Assembly (NCBI GenBank): GCA_031291955.1 | Contig: JARLIA010000011.1 | Span: forward strand, 6,511-70,510 | Source of the DNA: Minisyncoccota bacterium | GTDB lineage: Bacteria > Patescibacteriota > Minisyncoccia > Moranbacterales > UBA2206 | Direction: 5' to 3' | Length of the DNA stretch: 64,000 bases | Part shown: piece by piece, positions 108 through 10,800 of the stretch | Layout of the letters: each line of letters opens with the position of its first letter | How positions within the stretch are numbered: position 1 is the stretch's first letter | Translations under genes and position numbers: made by a program | Notes under the pieces: model-generated | What the model saw: the letters and a program-made list of their open reading frames with translations, nothing else | Told to the model about the DNA's origin: nothing | Database searches by the model: none

Positions 108-848
108 ATGTTTCAAAAACTTCTTTCCAGAATGTCCAGAAAGGCTGTGGCCGGCCTGGTCTTCGGCGTTATGCTGGCTTTGGGCGCCCTTATGGCCATC
201 GCTTTCACTGAACCGTCCACTTCTCCTTCCAGCATGCAGGAACCCCTTAATTCCAGTTCTACTGGCAATCTCAATAACGAAAAAAACGGCTCCGGGTCGG
301 GGACGAATGACACGCCGTACACGCAAATCCTGGGCGGCGTGGATGATTATAATAATAACTCCACGATGCCAAGCGACACGTATTCCGCCTCTTGGACGAC
401 GTGTAATTCCGGAAACAGTTATTGCGGCACGGGCGACGCGACCAATGCCAACAAGCAAGATCCCAACACCGGCCTGACCTGGTCGAACTGGCTTGATTCG
501 GGGAACAGCCACGACTGGTTTTGGGCCAACAACTGCGCGGAACCGGGGAGCGCCAGCGACCCCGGCACGTGCGTCAACAATGGAGACGCGGCCTGTCAAT
601 GTGTGAAACTGACCAGCTCAAAAACCGGTTGTGAAGCGCTGAGCGGCTGGCGCCTGCCATATCAGAAAGAACTGATGCAATCCTATATTGACGGATCCTG
701 GGGAAATCTATCTTCGGCTAACTACAGCTATTGGTCGTCTACTACCAACTCGTACAATACCCAGAGTGCTTGGTTCGTGTACCAGAACTACGGCAACACG
801 AACTACAACATTAAGACGGGTACCACTAAAGTCCGGTGCGTCCGTTAG
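108..848 (+). CDS. DGR target protein: N-terminal signal/TM segment, Ser/Thr-rich linker and C-terminal DUF1566 (Lcl C-terminal, C-type-lectin-like) domain carrying the variable region
   Basis: 246 aa. Hydrophobic N-terminus AVAGLVFGVMLALGALMAIAF. Motifs GLTW, WRLPYQKEL, YWSSTT and terminal KVRCVR are typical of DUF1566. The last ~45 codons are repeated at 2363-2513. Confidence 0.75.
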   Translation: MFQKLLSRMSRKAVAGLVFGVMLALGALMAIAFTEPSTSPSSMQEPLNSSSTGNLNNEKNGSGSGTNDTPYTQILGGVDDYNNNSTMPSDTYSASWTTCNSGNSYCGTGDATNANKQDPNTGLTWSNWLDSGNSHDWFWANNCAEPGSASDPGTCVNNGDAACQCVKLTSSKTGCEALSGWRLPYQKELMQSYIDGSWGNLSSANYSYWSSTTNSYNTQSAWFVYQNYGNTNYNIKTGTTKVRCVR

Positions 849-906: not shown

Positions 907-949
907 TAAGGTTCAACCTTTGGCTAGCCAAAGGTTGAACCTTAGGAAG
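907..949. repeat. 48-bp perfect palindrome family (cttcctaaggttcaacctttggct|agccaaaggttgaaccttaggaag), copy 1; outer 5 nt of the left arm absent
   Basis: Self-complementary; followed by cctcttt then ATG of the KilA-N ORF. Confidence 0.8.
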
Positions 950-956
950 CCTCTTT

Positions 957-1718
957 ATGACAAAAAGAAAAAAAGAAATAAACATAAAAGGCACGATAGT
1001 AGCTTTCTTTTCCGAGAAGGATAATGATTTTATTTGTTTGACTGACATGGCGAAATTCAAGGCTTATGATAGCGGAGTCGTTATCTCCAATTGGCTGACC
1101 ACGAAATATACCGTACAATTTATGGGCGCATGGGAACAATTGCATAATCAAAATTTTAATCTTATGGAATATCATAAGATTAAAAATGAAGTTGGCACCA
1201 ATGGGTTTATCGTTTCTTCGTCTATGTGGATCAGAAAGACAAATGCCATAGGCATTAGATCCAGCGCGGGCAGATATGGCGGTACTTTTGCTCATAAAGA
1301 CATCGCTTTCGAATTTGCAACTTGGCTCTCTCCGGAGTTTAAGCTTTATTTGATCAAAGAATTTCAAAGGCTGAAGATTGAAGAAAATGACCGGCTGACG
1401 CTTGGCTGGGATACAAAAAGAATGCTGACAAAAATAAATTATCGCATCCATACTGATGCGATCAAGGCTCACATAATTCCTAGCCGTATTTCAAGGGTTC
1501 AGGAAAATAATGTATACGCGAGCGAAGCTGATGTTTTAAATATGGCTTTATTTGGAATGACGGCGAAAGTTTGGCGAGACAAAAATTCAAAACTTGCGGG
1601 AAATATACGGGATTACGCGGATGTGACACAATTGGTCTGCCTGTACACGCTTCCTAAGGTTCAACCTTTGGCTAGCCAAAGGTTGAACCTTAGGAAGCCT
1701 CTTTATGGCTCGCTATAA
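957..1718 (+). CDS. KilA-N domain protein; C-terminal 20 aa encoded by read-through of palindrome copy 2
   Basis: 253 aa. GTFAHKDIAFEFATWLSPEFKLYLIKEF resembles the KilA-N/APSES DNA-binding core. AGGAAG lies 7 nt upstream of the ATG. Confidence 0.55.
   Translation: MTKRKKEINIKGTIVAFFSEKDNDFICLTDMAKFKAYDSGVVISNWLTTKYTVQFMGAWEQLHNQNFNLMEYHKIKNEVGTNGFIVSSSMWIRKTNAIGIRSSAGRYGGTFAHKDIAFEFATWLSPEFKLYLIKEFQRLKIEENDRLTLGWDTKRMLTKINYRIHTDAIKAHIIPSRISRVQENNVYASEADVLNMALFGMTAKVWRDKNSKLAGNIRDYADVTQLVCLYTLPKVQPLASQRLNLRKPLYGSL
1650..1697. repeat. 48-bp perfect palindrome, copy 2
   Basis: 24-bp arms with no loop; identical to 4306-4353; followed by cctcttt then ATG of avd at 1705. Confidence 0.85.
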
Positions 1719-2064
1719 CCACCTTCTTGTTTTCCAGCGGTCTTATGACTTGAATCTGGAAATATATCGCACGACCCACAATTTCCCTCGGGAATATAAA
1801 TATAGTTTGGGACAAAAAATGAAAGAAATTTCCGCGGAACTTTTGGATTGGATCGTGGTGACCAATTCCCAAAAAGACAAGACGCCCTATTTTTCCAAAA
1901 TAAAAATGCAGATCGAAAGATTGCGCATCCAGATCCGGGTGGCGTATGATTTGAAAATAATCAAAAGCCAAAGATTGGAATTTTTGAACCGGATCATCGA
2001 AGAAATTTCCATGCAGGTCAGTGGCTGGGAAAACTGGGCGAAGACTCAGGATGCAAAGGCTTAG
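1705..2064 (+). CDS. avd: Avd-like accessory variability determinant (four-helix-bundle protein family)
   Basis: 119 aa. N-terminal LLVFQRSYDLNLEIYRTTHNFPREYKYSLGQKMKE matches the four-helix-bundle / 23S-IVS protein family that includes DGR Avd. Lies between VR and TR. Confidence 0.7.
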   Translation: MARYNHLLVFQRSYDLNLEIYRTTHNFPREYKYSLGQKMKEISAELLDWIVVTNSQKDKTPYFSKIKMQIERLRIQIRVAYDLKIIKSQRLEFLNRIIEEISMQVSGWENWAKTQDAKA

Positions 2065-2084: not shown

Positions 2085-2362
2085 TGGGTTTCCGCGCTCG
2101 GTTCCCAGTTCTTTGAAAATTTAGAGAAGAAGATTTGGCGAAGCCAGAATTTTTATTTCGATTTCGGCCTGACAGTCGGGACAAATAAAAAGAGAGCATC
2201 GAATCGTTGCGGTTCCGCCTGCTTGATGGCGTTGGTTTTTGGAAAAGTTCGTTTCGATAAAAAAATATCAAACGCGCGACTGGCGTCAAGAGCATTAAGT
2301 TGCTTTGAACCATACTCAATTTCGGTTGAGATTGGTTCAGTTGAGGAAAAATGGTGGAATGA

Positions 2363-2513
2363 TATCTTCGGCTAACAACAACTATTGGTCGTCTACTACC
2401 AACTCGAACAATACCCAGAATGCTTGGAACGTGAACCAGAACAACGGCAACACGAACAACAACAATAAGACGAACACCAACAAAGTCCGGTGCGTCCGTT
2501 AGTCTTTGGCAAC
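2363..2513 (+). repeat. DGR template repeat (TR), AAC-codon-rich
   Basis: ~151-bp direct repeat of VR. Encodes an N-rich pseudo-peptide (NNNYWSSTTNSNNTQNAWNVNQNNGNTNNNNKTNTNKVRCVR). 14 adenine positions differ from VR. Confidence 0.75.
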
Positions 2514-2815: not shown

Positions 2816-3938
2816 TCATTTTTTAACTCTAAAATAATAAAAATCAAGGGACGATGGTTCAAGATAAGATTTCAACACGCCGAAATGTCTGGTGTAAAGC
2901 GACTTTCGCAGGCGCACCGTGTCGGCATGGCGGAATTGACCGTAGTAGGAATTTATGACGGATAAAATATTCTGAAGATCTTTTTGGAAAGTTTCCGGAG
3001 AATCGGGGAGGGGAGAATCGTTAAATTTTTTCAGCTTTTCTTTGAGATGGTTCACCACTCTTCGTCGGATGAGAGAATAGCCGGGCTTTATGATAAACCC
3101 GACAAAATTAATTCCACGACAGACGGATTGTTGGACGGATTTTCTCGGATGAAGAGTGAGTTGCAGTTCTTTTTTCAAAAAAATATCGATTCGTTTTTTC
3201 CAAATTTGAAGCTGGCGGGGATTTTTGCCAATCAAGATAAAATCATCGACATAGCGCAGATAAAATTTCACCCCCAAATCGTGTTTTACGAATTGATCGA
3301 GCCGATTGAGATATATATTGGCGAAAAACTGGGAAGTCAAATTGCCGATCGGAAGCCCCCGATCGGGCGAAATCCTAAAAAGGGTTTTGTTTTTAGGAAT
3401 GAGTTTGGCCAGATTCGGGTTGCCTTTGCGATAATAATTTTTGGTCGGATCGTGAAAAATTATTTTTTCGGCCAGCCATAAGATTTCCGGATTTCTTACC
3501 TGTTTTTTTGATGGCCGCGAAAAGAATATTTTTATTGAGCGACATAAAAAAAGCGGCAATGTCCATTTGGAGATAATGAGCGGGATGGGAAAAATTTTCA
3601 GTGGCGGTTCTTAAGGATTTTTTGAGATATTTTATGGCGATGTGAGAACCTTTGCCTTTTCGGCAGGCGAAAGAGTGAAAAATGAATTTTTTTTCGAAAA
3701 TCGGTTCCAGATAGCTGACGAGCAGGTGATGGACAATCCTATCGCGAAAATCAGCGGCGAAAATTTCGCGCGGCTTGGGAATAGTTACCACAAAACAAAT
3801 GGATTGCCCGGGATGATAAACGCGGTCTTGAAGCTCGCGTTCCAGTTTCAAGAGTTCATATTCAAAATTTAGCTCGATTCTGGCGGCATTGGCGGTTTTT
3901 CTTTTCCGTTTTCGGCAATCGTGATAGGCTTTTAACAA
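2816..3938 (-). CDS. DGR-type reverse transcriptase, interrupted by a +1 frameshift at the T7 run 3504-3510
   Basis: N-terminal ORF (3393-3938) has RDRIVHHLL, SFACRKGKGSHIA and LQMDIAAFF (RT motifs 1-3). C-terminal ORF (2816-3559) has GLPIGNLTSQFFANIYL, YLRYVDDFILIG (YxDD), GINFVGF and SYYGQFRHAD. Removing one A from the A7 run on the coding strand gives a continuous ...AAIKKQVRNPEILWLAEK... Confidence 0.8.
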
Positions 3939-3982
3939 ATTTTGAAAAGTAAAATAAGTAACGGCGCAAGATTTTGCGTCGC

Positions 3983-4004
3983 CTCTCTCTCTCTCTCTCT
4001 CTCT
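3983..4004. repeat. (CT)11 dinucleotide microsatellite in the divergent RT / transposase promoter region
   Basis: Uninterrupted ctctct... tract 45-66 nt upstream of the RT ATG (minus strand) and ~115 nt upstream of the transposase ATG. Confidence 0.9.
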
Positions 4005-4119
4005 CGATTTCCGAAATTATTTTTTCCTCCTCCATTTTTTGTTTTTCTATGTTATTATAATAACACAGTCAAAAAAAGAGCTAAACAAAAAAAACAGACC
4101 TCGGAGGTCTGTCAACCAA

Positions 4120-4794
4120 ATGAGAAAAACCGAGTTTGCCAACGAGGAATACTATCATATTTACAATCGCGGGGTAGACAAGCGGGAAGTGTTTGGCCAT
4201 GCCAATGATTATGAAAGATTTTTGCTTGGTATGGATTTGTTGAATGACGAGGATGACGGACTGATGCTTCTTTGGAGGGACTTGCACAAAAATGGGGCGG
4301 CCGGGCTTCCTAAGGTTCAACCTTTGGCTAGCCAAAGGTTGAACCTTAGGAAGCCTCTCGTTGATATCATCGCTTATTGTCTCAACCCCAATCATTATCA
4401 TTTCATCTTGAAGCAAAATAAAGACAAGGGGATAGAAAAATTTATGCAAAAATTGAGCACCAGCCATACGATGTATTTCAATAAAAAATATCAGAGAAGC
4501 GGCGCGCTATTTCAAGGCCGGTATAAATCCATCCACATCGACTCCAATGAATATCTGCTGTATCTCTCGTGCTATGTCAACGCCAATCATTTCATTCACG
4601 GGTATAATAGTGTTGAGGACTGGCCATATTGCAGTTATCCGGATTATCTCGGCAAAAGAAACGGAAAATTGTGCGGCAAAGAAATGATACTCGGGCAGTT
4701 TGACAATGATTTTTCCCAATATGAAAAATATCTGAATGACAACGCGCTCCACTTCAAAGAGAAAAAGGAAATGGAAAAATATATCTTGGAATAA
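4120..4794 (+). CDS. HUH tyrosine transposase, IS200/IS605 TnpA / REP-associated (RAYT-like, COG1943) family, with an in-frame palindrome insertion
   Basis: YHIYNRGVDKREVF, AYCLNPNHYHFIL (HuH) and ALFQGRYKS (catalytic Tyr context). Start taken at MRKTEF. The 48-bp palindrome 4306-4353 is translated in-frame as LPKVQPLASQRLNLRKP between the N-terminal motif and the HuH motif. Confidence 0.75.
   Translation: MRKTEFANEEYYHIYNRGVDKREVFGHANDYERFLLGMDLLNDEDDGLMLLWRDLHKNGAAGLPKVQPLASQRLNLRKPLVDIIAYCLNPNHYHFILKQNKDKGIEKFMQKLSTSHTMYFNKKYQRSGALFQGRYKSIHIDSNEYLLYLSCYVNANHFIHGYNSVEDWPYCSYPDYLGKRNGKLCGKEMILGQFDNDFSQYEKYLNDNALHFKEKKEMEKYILE
4306..4353. repeat. 48-bp perfect palindrome, copy 3 (inside the transposase CDS)
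   Basis: Identical to 1650-1697. Confidence 0.9.
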
Positions 4795-4831
4795 AAGGCT
4801 GCAAGAGCCAAGCTCCTTAATGATGGGAGTT

Positions 4832-4881
4832 AGGCTCTAAGTGCCTGGAAAAATTTTAACATTGCTTGGCACTTAGAGCCT
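4832..4881. repeat. Inverted-repeat hairpin (14-bp stem aggctctaagtgcc / ggcacttagagcct, 22-nt loop); right boundary repeat of the DGR module
   Basis: Lies between the transposase stop and the giant gene start; the left arm plus loop is the reverse complement of window positions 1-28. Confidence 0.6.
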
Positions 4882-4887
4882 TGAAGA

Positions 4888-7800
4888 GTGCGTAAAGTAA
4901 AAGAATTAAAAAAAATTAAAGTGACCTCCAAAACAAAAATTATTTTATACTCCTTGGCTTTTTTCCTGATCTTTTTGGGTTTTTCCGGCAATGCCAATGC
5001 CGCTCAAATTGGCAACACCATCGATTGGGCCTGGAGCGGGCAGTTGGGATGGATCCATTTTAACGGCAGCGCAGCCACGCCGGATTATGGCGTGACGACG
5101 ACCGACGGCACTGGTCTAACTGGCTATGCCTGGAGCGAAAAAGGCGGCTATATCAAATTTTCCGGCACTTGTTCGCAAGCCGGCGGATGCCCGGGCGGAG
5201 GGAATACATATCAAGTGACAGCTTCCGGCACGTGCGCAGTTGGTCGGGAATGTCTTTCCGGCTGGGCTTGGGGAGCGGGAATCGGCTGGATCCATTTTGC
5301 CGCCAGCGGTTCAAACTATGCCAACAATTCCAATACCACCTACGGCGTCTATATCGATTCCCAAGGATTTTTCAGGGGCTACGCCTGGAATGACCAATTC
5401 GGCTGGATCCATTTCGGTGGAGCGTGTACCGGAGGAGTTGGAACTTGCCTGAATGGAGAAGCGACTTACGCGGTTCATGAAGGTCCTAAAAACGTCTACT
5501 ATTCCGTCGGCCAATCGGTGTCCAATCTCATGACCGGTTCGCCGACGATGAATCTGACGAGTGGCGTGGCGACTTTTTCCGTGGCGCAGACGGGAAACAT
5601 CGGGGTGGGCGACCGGGTGACGTATAACACTTCCAGCGTCGCTTACATTGCATCGAAAACCGACTCGACCGGGACTGATTGGCAACTGGTGACGGCCACC
5701 GGCGGAACGCCGGCGGATGTCTCTGTCGCGACGGTCAATTCCATCACCCACGAATACACTTCACTTGCGGCGGCGATTGCCGGAGCCACAGACGTCAACC
5801 ATCTCAACAACACCGATCTCACAGTCGCCAACGTGGTTTTGAATATTCCTTGTTATTATGATTCCGGATCGGACACGACAGCGGTGACGGTTTCCGGCTA
5901 CACGACTTCGGCGGCGGATTACATCAAAATTTACACGCCGTCCAACACAACTACTTATCCGGCTGAAGCCAATAATTCGCAGCGGGCGATGGGGAAGTGG
6001 GACGCGACGAAATATAATCTTCAAGCAGGGGCTTCGTCATCCAGTCTTTTGAATATTCTTGTTCCTGATGTGAAAATTGACGGGCTGCAATTATATCAAT
6101 CGGTAGGATATTATTCATCTGTAGTAGGATTGAATAGCAGCGGTGTTGTCAATCTCAGTGTGTCTAATAGTATTATAAGAGCATTCAGTGGCAATACAGG
6201 AAATTATGGCATAATTATTGAAGGCGGAAGCACTGGAAGTGTTTATAATATTTACAATAACATTGTCTATGGGGCGAGTTATGATTCTGGGTGTAATGGC
6301 CTAATGGTTGAGAATAGTTCGGTGTTTTTGTATAACAATACCTTTTACGGCAACTATACGGGAATTTATGGCTATAGCGGCACACTTATAGCTAAAAATA
6401 ACATTGTCTATAACAACACCACCGACTATTCCGGCTCATTCGATTCTTCTTCCACTAACAATTTGAGCAAAGATGCGACTGCGCCGGGGTCTAATGCGGA
6501 AATAAATCGGACCGTCCAATTCGCCAACGCCGGCGCCAATGATTTTCATCTTTCCCTTGCCGACACGGCCGCCCTGGGACACGGCGCGAATCTCTCCGTC
6601 GATACCAATTTTGCTTTCGATACTGACATTGACGGCCAAACGCGACCGACGATATGGGACATCGGAGCGGACCAATCCGCCACGGCGATATATTATTCCG
6701 TTGGGCAAAATACCAACGATCATTCTTCTGGCGGGAATGTTTCCATCTCTTCCGGCGAAGCGACTTTTGACACGCCTCAAACGGCGACGAACTTGGGCGT
6801 GGGAGATGTGCTCACCGCCGGAGGCAACGCTTATTACATTTCCAAAAAAATCGACACTTCCCATTGGGATGTTATTACGGCTCTTGGCGCGACGCCGGCG
6901 GATTTATCTTCCACATCGGTTACCTCCATTACTCACGCCTTCGCGTCTTTGGAAGGTGCGGTCGATGCCAGCACTGCCTCTGGCGCGTTCGACAGTTCGC
7001 ATCTCAACACCAAAGATCTGGTGGCGAACAATTATCAATTGAATATTCCTTGCTATTACGATACCGGTGCGGACACGACAGCGGTGACGATTTCGGGATG
7101 GACAACAGGCGCTTCCAATTACATTCGTATTTACACGCCGAAGAGTCTGACGACGGAAGCCAATTTTTCGCAAAGGGCGACGGGTAAGTGGGATAATTCG
7201 AAATATTCAATTTCAGCCAATGCTAACGTTATTTATGTGCAGATTGAAAATGTCCATGTAGACGGGTTGCAAGTCGAACTTAATCCAACATCAGATGATG
7301 GATATTTAGGAATAGGAGTAAATTCCCAATCATACATCATCGATGGGTTTGAAGCTTCAAATAATATCGTTAAACAGACAACTCAAAAAGTTGATGCGTA
7401 CGGGGTAATTTGTTATACAGGAGCATCTACTTGTAAAATATGGAATAACATTGTTTATGGCTTTAGTTTAGGATCGGCAGGAAGAGGGTCTATTTTGGTG
7501 GGCGGGTCAAGCAGTACTGTGGCCTATGTTTACAATAATACGACCTATGGAAATTATATCGGAATACAGGAATTGGCAGGCGGGGAAATATTTCTCAATA
7601 ACAATCTTTCATACAATAACGGGACCGACTATGACGGCTCTTTCGATCCGTCTTCCACCAACAACTTGAGTAAAGACGCGACTGCGCCGGCCTACGGGAC
7701 GTATTATCGTAACGCGACGGTAACTTTCGTTGACGCTACGAACGATGATTTCCATCTGGCTTCCACCGATACGGGAGCGATTGGCAACGGCGCGAATTTG

Positions 7801-10800
7801 ATCAGCGACACTTATTTGCCTTTTTCCACTGACATCGACGGCCAAACGAGACCGGCGACGGGAGCCTGGGATATCGGGGCGGATGAAAGCACTAGCAGGG
7901 TCTACTATTCCGTCGGTCAATCCGCCAGCAATCTCATGACCGGCGCGCCGACCATGACCATGGTTTCCGGCGCGGCGGTTTTGTCGGTGGCGCAGACGGG
8001 AAACATCGGGGTCGGTGATCGGGTGACTTACAACACCTCGCAAATCGCTTACATCGCTTCCAAAACAGATTCATCCGGCACCAAATGGAATTTGGTGACA
8101 GCTCTCGGCGCGACACCGGCCGATGTGACGACGGCCGTGACTGTCAATTCCATCACGCACGAATACACTTCGCTTGCCGCGGCGATTGCCGGCGCCAGCG
8201 GCGCCAACCACATCAACAATCTCGATCTTACGGCCGCCAACGTGGTTTTGAATATTCCTTGCTATTATGATTCCGGCCCGGATACGACGGCGGTGAATGT
8301 TTCCGGTTTCACAACCAGCGCGACAAACTACATCAAAATTTATACCCCCCACATCACAACTACTTATCCGGCCGAAGCCAATTTTTCGCAGAGGGCGATG
8401 GGGAAGTGGGATAATGGGAAGTATAGTTTGGAAGTTTCAGGTCCTTGGAAAAACGCGATTGATAATAATGTAATTTATACCCAGGTTGTCGGCTTGCAAA
8501 TCAGCCTGGCAAACGCCGCTGGTTTTGTCGGGGATATCCGCGATGATGCCGGCGGACTTATGGCCAGCTTTAATTTAATCACGGGAGACGACACGGGATA
8601 TGGAATTATAAGCGGAACTTATATATACAACAATATAATATATAACTTTCCAAACAACTATGGAATTTATATCACCTCGGGTTATGTTTATAATAATACT
8701 GTTTATAATGCGGGTATTGCATACGCTTGGTCAGGCGGTAACGGAACATTTTTAGAAAATAATATTGCTCAAGATACGGTAACTGGATATAGCAATAATC
8801 CTCCGGGTGCCAACAATCTTTCCGATCACGCCGACGCGCCCGGGTCCAATCCGCAAAATTCCAAAACCGTCCAATTCGCCGACGCGGCCAAGTCTGATTT
8901 CCATTTGAGCCCGAATGACTCGGTCGCGCGGGGAGCAGGAACAAATCTTTCCGCCGATTCCAATTTAGCGTTCAACACCGACATCGACGGCCAAACCAGA
9001 CCAGCCACAGGCGCTTGGGACATCGGCGCCGACCAATCCGCCACAGCCATATATTATTCCGTCGGCCAAAATACTTCCGATCACAAAACCGGCACGCCAA
9101 CAGTGACGATTGCCGGAAACGCGGTGACGTTCAGCACGGGCCAGACGGCCACCAATATGGGAGTGGGAGACAAAATTACTTATACCGTGAGCTTGACCAA
9201 CTATTCTTGCTATATTACTTCAAAGACATCCACCGACGGCACCGGCTGGATGTGCGAAACGGCCACCGGTGGCACGCCGACCGCCGCGCCCGGTGGTTCG
9301 GCTGTCGTTTCCATTACTCACGCGTTCAGTTCTCTCAATGCGGCCGTCTCCGGCGCGTCAGGCGCGAGTTATCTCAACACTTCGGATTTATACACCAACA
9401 ATTACCAATTGAATTTTCCTTGCTACTACGATTCAGGCCCGGATATGACGACGGTGACAGTTGGCGGTGGCTACACAACGGCCGAGCCGAACTATATTAG
9501 AGTTTATACGCCGTATAACACAATAACGGAAGTGAATCAGTCACAAAGAGCGATGGGGAAGTGGGATAATTCTAAATATAACGCCAGCGGATATATAAAT
9601 TTAGGGACAAACTATGTATGGATTGATGGTTTGCAAATTGTAAATTATTCATCCGGCGGCTATCCTTCGGCAATCGAGGCGAATGGGACTGCCACTCTCG
9701 GTCTTCGAGTATCCAATAGTATCATTTTTATGGACACTTCGGGAACGGCTAGTGGCACAGGAATTAAATCGGGCGCTTCGATGACGGTCTGGAATAATGT
9801 TATATATATGGCAAATACTACCAGTGCGGGGATGTATTTTAGCTACGGTAAATTTTATATTTACAACAATACGGTATATGGAGGAAGCGACGGAATTAGC
9901 GGTGCAAACCTTGGCGAAGTAATGTATGCCAAGAATAACCTTTTTTATGGTAATAATCTTGATTATCACGGCGCGTTCGACTCTTCTTCCACCAACAACT
10001 TGAGCAAAGACGCCACCGCGCCGGGCAGCAATCCGATAAACTCAGCCACCGTAAATTTTGCCAACGCGACGGCCAATGATTTTCATCTTTCCCCCACTGA
10101 CACGGCCGCATTGGGACACGGCGCCAATTTGAGCGCCGATTCCAATTTAACGTTTAATACCGACATTAATGGCAACAGCCGCGGGAGTTTTTGGTCGATC
10201 GGGGCGGATAATGGACCAGTGGCGACCATTAACGCGCCGCACGCGACAAACACCAGCGCCAGCACCGGATTGGATTCGGGTCTCGTCGGCTACTGGTCGT
10301 TTGACGGTCCGACCATTTCCGGGACAACAGTGAAAGATCTCTCCGGCCAAAACAACAACGGAACCAACTCCGGCGCCACGCCGACTATTGGGGCGCGGGG
10401 GCAGGCATTGAGTTTTGACGGGACGAGCAGTGGTGTCGCAACTGGTAATATATACCCAACCGGAAGCGGGGTTTCTTATGCTTTTTGGATGAAAACACCG
10501 CAAACGACTAATGCTATGCCTGTTATGGGTTGGGGATATGATCAATGTTGGGTCAGTAACGTAGGTTCGCATAAAATCAACTGCACTAATGATGGCGGAG
10601 GTTATGACGGAGTGACTTCCAGCATTAGCGTGGATGACAATAAATGGCACTTTATTGTTTTTGCTTCAGCGGGTGGAAGCAATGGAACCGTGACGCTTTA
10701 CGTGGATGGACAAAATCAGGGCAGCAACACTGAGACGCTAGGCATATCAAACGATTTTGCTATAAAATGGGGTTCGGTAGGATTCGACAGTCGCCACTAC

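Follow-up and report, generated by a model that had tools for sequence, protein, structure and literature searches.

The textbook case of a domesticated transposase kept together with its repeat is the pairing of repetitive extragenic palindromes (REPs) with the REP-associated tyrosine transposases (RAYTs), where the repeat is described as extragenic. Single-strand cutting and joining by Y1 enzymes is established for the insertion sequences IS608 and ISDra2. The Rickettsia palindromic elements (RPEs), in turn, are imperfect, ~100-150 bp long, and we know of no cognate transposase for them. The association of REP and REPIN elements with RAYT (TnpA_REP) transposases has been described (Nunvar 2010, PMC2817692; Bertels and Rainey 2011, PMC3116915; Messing 2012, PMC3479197), and by the criteria of two papers (PMC3733652, PMC2817692) classical REPs are imperfect palindromes of 20-40 nucleotides (nt) that carry a GTAG or CGTC tag, are extragenic and reach a high copy number. 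The stretch analysed here, referred to as the window, comprises 64,000 nt from a Minisyncoccota bacterium (assembly GCA_031291955.1, contig JARLIA010000011.1, positions 6,511 to 70,510 of the forward strand) and holds a diversity-generating retroelement (DGR), a KilA-N gene flanked by two copies of a 48-nt palindrome, and a third copy within a Y1/HUH transposase gene. With a probability of about 0.6, we regard this palindrome as a REP-like mobile hairpin repeat of a RAYT-like Y1/HUH family of Patescibacteria, two copies of which bracket an inserted, truncated KilA-N gene. The first-pass annotation of the window had read the KilA-N region as a gene cassette; it had listed copy 3 but had not noticed that this copy forms part of a transposase reading frame, and had not connected the palindrome with the RAYT-like gene. 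The transposase-borne palindrome family is the more interesting finding.

The 48-mer, CTTCCTAAGGTTCAACCTTTGGCT joined directly to AGCCAAAGGTTGAACCTTAGGAAG, is a perfect palindrome that occurs exactly at 1650-1697 (copy 2) and 4306-4353 (copy 3), and its 36-nt core is present again at 908-943 within a left-truncated copy (copy 1, 907-949), none of the three being assigned a strand. Exact matching confirmed these annotated positions and lengthened two of them, copy 2 being a 50-nt palindrome with its flanking G..C (1649-1698) and copy 3 one of 52 nt with GG..CC (4304-4355). In copy 1 the left arm is missing its outer 5-6 nt, TTATTT standing where CTTCCT would be expected. The right flank CCTCTTTATG is common to copies 1 and 2, which belong to an exact 53-nt direct repeat (907-959 and 1655-1707) that includes, as annotated, a CCTCTTT tail (950-956 and 1698-1704, plus strand) and an ATG; copy 3 keeps only the first five bases of this tail (CCTCT). 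The expected number of chance matches is 0, no shuffle of the window yielding any match, and no fourth copy was found in the other 59 kb, even at 14 mismatches, all three lying within the first 4.4 kb. Read from the sequence, the palindrome has stop codons in two of its three frames; the single open frame, which gives the peptide LPKVQPLASQRLNLRK, is consistent with its being tolerated within genes. An Rfam search with the hairpin gave only sub-threshold matches to microRNA precursors, as any long hairpin does, and no known RNA family; viral contigs matched neither the 22-nt arm nor a degenerate pattern of the palindrome family, and no phage link was found.

Copy 3 lies in frame in a gene for a protein of 224 amino acids (4120-4794, plus strand), in which it encodes residues 63-78 (LPKVQPLASQRLNLRK). 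This protein matches the Pfam profile Y1_Tnp (PF01797) with 37.5 bits against a cut-off of 23, and the motif H92-Y93-H94 and the tyrosine Y152 are invariant in 25 aligned homologs; from this family pattern we infer that Y152 is probably the catalytic residue. The AlphaFold model has a mean pLDDT (predicted local distance difference test) of 78.9, with the lowest internal confidence at residues 51-80, and these include the palindrome-encoded segment, which forms a loosely ordered part of the surface. In the PDB the closest fold was that of 4er8_A (E=1.2e-6), a structure of the E. coli RAYT in complex with a REP hairpin; ISDra2 and IS608 TnpA came next. A sequence search of the PDB with the transposase gave no match, the relation being visible by fold alone. 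The enzyme is therefore RAYT-like, but a distant relative that stands outside the curated RAYT equivalog. Homologs are numerous (4177 at E<=1e-5, almost all of ~222 amino acids) and come from Moranbacteria, Parcubacteria and other Patescibacteria, also known as the candidate phyla radiation (CPR), some of them being named RayT by the Joint Genome Institute (JGI). The palindrome-encoded segment is the most variable part of the homolog alignment, its length being kept.

The position of copy 3 carries a covarying palindrome across the RAYT-like gene family. In homologous DNA from Patescibacteria contigs, ten RAYT-like genes each hold, at the corresponding codons, a perfectly palindromic stretch of 38-52 nt whose sequence differs from gene to gene, as in L006 (GGATTCCTAAGGTCCGACCTTTGGAT, followed across the centre by ATCC...) and in the left arms of L007 (TCCTAAGGCGAAGCCTTTGGCT), L008 (GAATCCCAAGGTTCGACCTTCGGAA), L010 (TCCTAAGGCTCAACCTTTGGCG), L020 (GGTTTCCTAAGGTTCAACCTTGGGCT), L026 (CCTAGAGCTCAGCTCTGGGAA) and L028 (CAAGGTTCAACCTAGGGTC). 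A gap-free alignment of the ten palindromes gave 22 inner pairs and 220 pair cells, of which 98.2% were paired; both sides had changed in 14 of the 22 pairs and one side alone in none. The covariation score was reached in 0 of 500 shuffles, and pairing fell to 51-58% when the partner was slid by one column. G-U (G-T) intermediates were absent from all 220 cells and the loops are of zero length, which points to a symmetry that is maintained at the level of DNA; the family keeps invariant CCTAAGG...CCTTnGG blocks. The same signal could be followed in the peptides: among 120 homologs, 16 have 6-9 consecutive residue pairs encodable by reverse-complementary codons (at most 5 in shuffled proteins), and 14 of these runs sit 17-23 residues before the CLNPNHYH motif, the other two being unplaceable. 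An internal copy in frame was present in 12/12 family members whose DNA was examined. In a more distant clade (peptide ...DFLKLGFRK...) the gene holds a hairpin of 10-12 bp, TTCCTAAAAC-n3-GTTTTAGGAA. The Y1 genes of the window and of L005, the Moranbacteria ortholog described below, are 74% identical in DNA and saturated at synonymous sites (pS 0.79, dN 0.17), yet the 48 nt of the palindrome are identical between them. A second RAYT-like gene in L007 (7418-8074), with its own palindrome (7569-7620), appears degraded, its counterparts in L008 (476-1147) and L009 (890-1561) being intact; paralogous pairs of gene and hairpin thus coexist side by side.

Copies outside the transposase gene were sought with the exact 22-nt arm in 185,579 species-representative genomes and in metagenomes. 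The genome scan returned a single genome, that of Candidatus Moranbacteria RIFOXYA12_FULL_35_19, with three copies, and the metagenome scan the same Moranbacteria organism and one odd half-site. This half-site (L003, Ga0118677_10175405, 1385-1413), on a short contig that is not Patescibacteria-like, consists of one 26-nt arm plus CCAAT and equals the Moranbacteria transposase copy, the second arm being absent. The first of the three Moranbacteria copies is a perfect 50-mer that occupies, in the Y1 ortholog, the codons corresponding to those in the window gene. The second is a perfect 48-mer in frame in the gene for valyl-tRNA synthetase (ValRS; ...GDAILPKVQPLASQRLNLRKLLMVEKWP...), where the palindrome peptide falls in a loop of variable length; in solved ValRS structures this loop has 8-12 residues fewer, and among the sequences compared there was no ValRS ortholog free of the insert. 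The third, in MurB, is also in frame, left-truncated and with one uncompensated C-to-T change. A search of the protein database with a tripled peptide query found no other host protein with LPKVQPLASQRLNLRK at E<=10.

Dispersed copies were also seen at other loci of the family. In L010 and L011 two intergenic copies have the same 36-nt core as the gene's own copy, one of them in L010 lying 43 nt past the stop of the RAYT-like gene, and their outer flanks differ from those of the gene's copy yet are self-complementary (AATTC...GAATT and CC...GG). In the distant clade (L030 and L024) a short hairpin, CCTAAAAC-n3-GTTTTAGG, occurs both inside and beside the gene; in L030 such hairpins, at 9969 and 10676, flank the gene (10001-10669), also stand after several other genes and form REPIN-like doublets, and in L024 there is one at 2911, downstream only (gene end 2905). 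In the window the nearest extragenic copy is 2.4 kb from the RAYT-like gene. The dispersed repeats match the variant of the resident gene in the window, in the Moranbacteria contig, in L010/L011 and in L030, with one exception in L007 that is taken up below. Family palindromes also stand next to avd in two other DGR loci, at 8246-8284 in L020 (AAGGTTCAACCTT...) and at 2573-2616 in L007 (AAGGTTAAACCTT...); the left flanks of these two are homologous (cttacgcgtt[c/t]gctaatattt). One candidate for an empty site, L012 1748-1921 compared with L010 10708-10908 and L011 2125-2325, was rejected as a strain-level deletion of 27 nt that removed one arm; the deletion shows that copies are unstable.

Two other functions of the hairpin have to be weighed against these distributions. 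It might act mainly as RNA, i.e., as an intrinsic terminator, an RNase III site or a stabiliser of mRNA, and spread only secondarily, a view that has been put forward for some REPs. In favour of this, the fold is very stable, a scan flagged copy 2 with CCTCTTTATG as terminator-like, and the intergenic copies of L010 and L030 are placed just past gene ends. Midway through the reading frames of ValRS, MurB and the transposase, however, a terminator or an RNase III site would be harmful, and the lack of G-U intermediates, the zero-length loops and the identity of both strands argue for a symmetry of the DNA. A predominant role as RNA is quite unlikely, although it would be compatible with a REP-like mobile repeat. 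The palindrome could otherwise be a symmetric double-stranded site for a dimeric protein (KilA-N or another regulator), or a cruciform that serves DGR target recognition downstream of the variable repeat (VR). The perfect two-fold symmetry and the invariant blocks would suit such a site, as would the position of copy 1, 55 nt after the VR, and the palindromes beside avd in L007 and L020. But L020 has no palindrome after its VR, the copies in ValRS, MurB and the transposase gene are far from any DGR or KilA-N gene, and the consistent partner of the palindrome is the Y1 gene and not KilA-N, so that we give this explanation very little credence.

The DGR into which copies 1 and 2 fall consists of a target gene with an Lcl_C domain (108-848, plus strand; VR at 702-852), avd (1705-2064, plus strand; bAvd / DivGenRetAVD), a template repeat (TR, 2356-2506, plus strand) that differs from the VR at 18 positions, 13 of them TR adenines, and a reverse transcriptase (RT) gene on the minus strand (2816-3938). 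The RT is split into two frames (residues 22-168 of the L020 RT align in frame -1 and 129-358 in frame -2, with a frameshift between ~3411 and 3508), which could reflect a pseudogene or a homopolymer sequencing error. An orthologous DGR was found in L020/L021, with the order target, avd, palindrome-family hairpin, TR, RT (minus strand) and RAYT-like gene, and with no KilA-N gene. Four segments of the window align to L020: 333-880 to 7264-7811 (target gene, 69% nt identity), 1704-2043 to 7843-8182 (avd, 88%), 2127-2559 to 8316-8735 (TR region, 75%) and 2818-4782 to 8744-10666 (RT and RAYT-like gene, 73%).

It is this comparison that delimits the insertion. Similarity to L020 runs base by base to ...gatttgaattattt at window position 906, i.e., to the very start of copy 1, and resumes at the ATG of avd; in L020 the same point is followed by 22 nt (tttttatttagcttttcagtat) and then by the avd ATG, the whole spacer between target and avd being 31 nt long and free of palindromes. 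Window 907-1704 (798 nt) is accordingly an insertion that replaced 22 nt, and the tail at 1698-1704 stands where L020 has this native spacer. As judged from the ortholog, then, the block between the target gene and avd is inserted, in agreement with the first-pass annotation, which had taken the KilA-N gene and its two bracketing copies for an insertion; the palindrome that it had supposed to lie between target and avd ancestrally has no counterpart in the L020 spacer. The triple gatttgg repeat at 861-900 exists as annotated, but it is also present in L020 and thus belongs to the native spacer, outside the insertion.

What was inserted does not appear to be an intact gene. The KilA-N open reading frame (ORF; 957-1718, plus strand, stop at 1716-1718; Pfam KilA-N PF04383, E=2.5e-19) matches its homologs, which are 270-276 amino acids long, until residue 229 (...DYADVTQLVCL); there follow YT, the palindrome peptide and PLYGSL, where the homologs have ~45 conserved residues. 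The fragment proper (codons 1-229, plus strand) thus occupies 957-1643, without ~45 conserved C-terminal codons, and six bases of filler (TACACG, 1644-1649, plus strand) separate its breakpoint from copy 2. The nucleotide homology to L013 (4018-4704) covers window 956-1642, from the ATG to the breakpoint, at 82% identity, and the encoded fragment is 88% identical to the homolog P0121 (pN 0.04 and pS 0.71 against L013). That the ORF reads through copy 2, as annotated, was borne out: residues 232-247 are palindrome-encoded, in the same frame that the transposase uses in copy 3, and residues 230-253 have no counterpart in homologs. By this comparison the KilA-N gene is evidently truncated at its 3' end and is not an intact cassette. 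A hairpin of 14-16 bp (AATTTTAATCTTATGG...CATAAGATTAAAAAT) is conserved within the KilA-N coding sequence (window 1152-1187, L013 4214-4249, L017 6192-6223).

The first-pass annotation had proposed instead that a unit of palindrome, ribosome-binding site and gene was duplicated or inserted, with the terminal AGGAAG of the palindrome serving as Shine-Dalgarno (SD) sequence for both KilA-N and avd. The spacing is right, the same 7 nt (CCTCTTT) separating AGGAAG from the start codon in either gene, and the block is indeed an insertion relative to L020. In the predicted RNA fold of 1630-1740, however, the full hairpin forms (-49 kcal/mol, z = -7.7) and AGGAAG is wholly paired in its 24-bp stem; SD-like motifs precede only ~6 of 38 long ORFs in the window (a crude count based on the first ATG), and the native leaders of avd (L020, L013) and of KilA-N (L013) are devoid of them. 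Moreover, the KilA-N gene is truncated, and the check that the annotation had suggested, namely what lies downstream of the palindrome elsewhere, showed copies inside coding sequences or after genes, none before a start codon and none followed by cctcttt-ATG. The ribosome-binding unit is therefore very unlikely, and the most natural reading of the SD-like spacing is that it arose incidentally when the block was inserted.

Could the KilA-N gene have been there before the palindromes? In the DGR of L013, which has the same avd...RT (minus strand) order, a full-length KilA-N gene (88% identical in amino acids) lies 12 nt upstream of avd with no palindromes and is preceded by a similar tttgaatt/gatttg motif. 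The adjacency of KilA-N and avd is thus independent of the palindrome and may be a recurrent or older arrangement. The first-pass annotation had itself named an ancestral, palindrome-free KilA-N component of the DGR as what would speak against its reading, and L013 supplies this in part. If KilA-N were ancestral upstream of avd and lost in L020, palindromes would later have been inserted on both sides, the second deleting the 3' end of the gene. L013 is not orthologous, however, having another target gene and an avd without detectable nucleotide similarity to that of the window, and the true ortholog, L020, has an uninterrupted 31-nt spacer. In addition, the same 7-nt tail at both KilA-N junctions would be expected if a unit had moved and would be a coincidence for independent insertions. 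This history is unlikely. The DGR of L013 contains, between avd and RT, a GIY-YIG gene (5783-6085) as well; it seems that genes of selfish appearance accumulate in the DGR loci of these bacteria.

An assembly artefact was also considered, in which a KilA-N fragment from elsewhere, or a separate circle of 748 nt, was threaded into the locus through the 53-nt exact repeat. The flanking repeat, at 53-54 nt, is about as long as the k-mers that assemblers commonly use, and in another assembly the same gene is broken off at the centre of the palindrome (P0004 starts at LASQRL). The exact truncated ORF is not recorded in other assemblies that might have corroborated its junctions. On the other side, reads must contain the unique junctions gaattattt/AAGG and ctgtacacg/CTTCC, the leader of avd departs from that of L020 exactly as expected for an abutting palindrome, and any other threading needs a 748-nt circle or a tandem repeat. 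An artefact is highly improbable.

How the copies spread can be proposed by analogy with the IS200/IS605 TnpA enzymes and the E. coli RAYT. The Y1 enzyme, which we infer to move the hairpins, would bind the hairpin on single-stranded DNA and would cut and rejoin near its foot, thereby seeding nearby copies. The internal copy has been held perfectly self-complementary across the family by paired substitutions. Since the bracketing copies share 53 identical bases, including CCTCTTT and ATG, they presumably derive from one another, and the combination of KilA-N fragment, hairpin and tail may have been placed at a hairpin next to avd by hairpin-to-hairpin strand transfer or recombination. In a single event, a segment reaching from just past one hairpin-plus-tail to just past the next would have been transferred to a third hairpin-plus-tail adjoining avd. 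Such an event, which would correspond to the single-strand cutting and joining known from Y1 enzymes, would leave what is seen, i.e., both KilA-N ends abutting a palindrome with the same 7-nt tail and 53 identical nt; homologous recombination of a circle at the repeat is an alternative route to the same outcome. The exact course of the KilA-N capture is a proposal.

A number of observations weigh against a mobile, REP-like hairpin. At the level of single copies, the palindrome at avd replaces 22 nt and is not a clean insertion; the one in MurB replaces ~12 codons of the ortholog for a net gain of 2, which is not a simple gain of 16; and the palindrome beside avd in L007 (2573-2616) matches neither RAYT-like gene of its locus. 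No common target site or flank was found around the copies, and no clean pair of empty and filled sites, the 27-nt arm deletion being the only polymorphism seen. Copies are few (3 in the 64 kb, each of them close to the gene), the palindromes are long and perfect and lack the GTAG/CGTC tags of classical REPs, and the transposase scores 36 bits with the NCBIfam REP_Tyr_transpos equivalog (NF047646), below the cut-off of 80. The perfect symmetry without G-T pairs could instead denote a double-stranded protein-binding site. Finally, no transposition has been observed. The REP-like reading is nevertheless preferred for what was observed together: a covarying intragenic palindrome throughout the family, dispersed copies that match the resident variant, an insertion, and a truncated gene. 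Several roles are conceivable for the internal copy, among them that of a protected master copy and that of an autoregulatory site. A more tentative idea, and on balance a doubtful one, is that the internal hairpin is kept palindromic by enzyme-driven, hairpin-templated correction (compare the terminal resolution by parvoviral Rep) and not by ordinary selection, with a protected master copy that seeds translatable copies both between genes and in essential genes, pairs of which could capture gene fragments and move them, as with the KilA-N piece in the DGR.

A few further features of the same region are recorded here. A fragment of the 3' end of a transfer-messenger RNA (tmRNA; T-arm and acceptor) is found at 2700-2770 on the minus strand (Rfam RF00023, 35.6 bits, under the gathering score of 47); it sits between TR and RT, in a stretch of ~258 nt (2560-2817) that L020 lacks, and could be the remnant of an element integrated at ssrA. 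A second family of hairpin repeats, AGGCTCTAAG[A/T]GCCT, occurs at 14-28, 2063-2077, 4832-4846 and 4867-4881, only in the first 5 kb; an inverted repeat pairs 1-35 with 4825-4859, and a second-family palindrome of 33 nt is present at 2054-2086. Its copies precede the target gene and follow both avd and the RAYT-like gene, so that the family brackets the whole module of DGR and transposase. A (CT)11 microsatellite lies at 3985-4006, between the start of the RT and the RAYT-like gene.

In full-text searches of the literature, nothing was found on palindromes within the RAYT-like genes of Patescibacteria (CPR). The family offers a concrete handle on the long-term matching of a repeat and its enzyme, and it reduces to a simple biochemical test system of one 224-residue protein and one 48-nt oligonucleotide. 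Hairpin repeats can evidently be written into essential proteins (ValRS, MurB). For annotation, it matters that such palindromes break assemblies and create chimeric ORF tails, of which the KilA-N C-terminus is an example, and for DGR biology that the DGR cassettes of these bacteria are reshaped by such repeats, as this locus shows.

Compared with known systems, the locus resembles a DGR with an accessory Avd, in that it has a target gene carrying a VR as well as avd, a TR and an RT, and most differences between TR and VR fall on adenines; the palindromes and KilA-N, however, are not DGR components and are absent from the spacer between target and avd in the ortholog, and the RT is frameshifted here. 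With the IS200/IS605 elements (IS608, ISDra2) it has in common the Y1 HUH fold and, presumably, the recognition of a hairpin on single-stranded DNA; the block of KilA-N fragment, hairpin and tail could have come about by a circle-and-paste route. Unlike in these elements, the gene is not enclosed by a pair of left and right ends, the ORF itself contains the hairpin, and there is no conserved target tetranucleotide. The likeness to the RPEs is one of behaviour only, i.e., presence in frame inside essential protein-coding genes and translation as extra peptide segments. Here the in-frame copies are in ValRS, MurB, the RAYT-like gene and the tail of KilA-N; the repeats of the window are 48 nt long, perfect and tied to a Y1 gene. 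The closest parallel is the REP-RAYT system. In both, a Y1/HUH protein is paired with a genome-specific hairpin repeat whose variant covaries with the resident gene, and in the distant clade the hairpins beside the gene and after other genes resemble the classical RAYT/REP arrangement, to which an internal copy is added; the fold is closest to 4er8. In contrast to REPs, the type-A hairpins here are perfect, 38-52 nt long, loop-less, without a GTAG/CGTC tag and low in copy number (3 in the 64 kb of the window); several copies are intragenic and translated, and the protein falls below the NCBIfam RAYT cut-off. A further difference is that a copy is present in frame within the transposase ORF of every member examined; the most conserved copy of the repeat lies there, within the transposase's own reading frame, with perfect symmetry and heavy covariation across many small-genome lineages of Patescibacteria (CPR).

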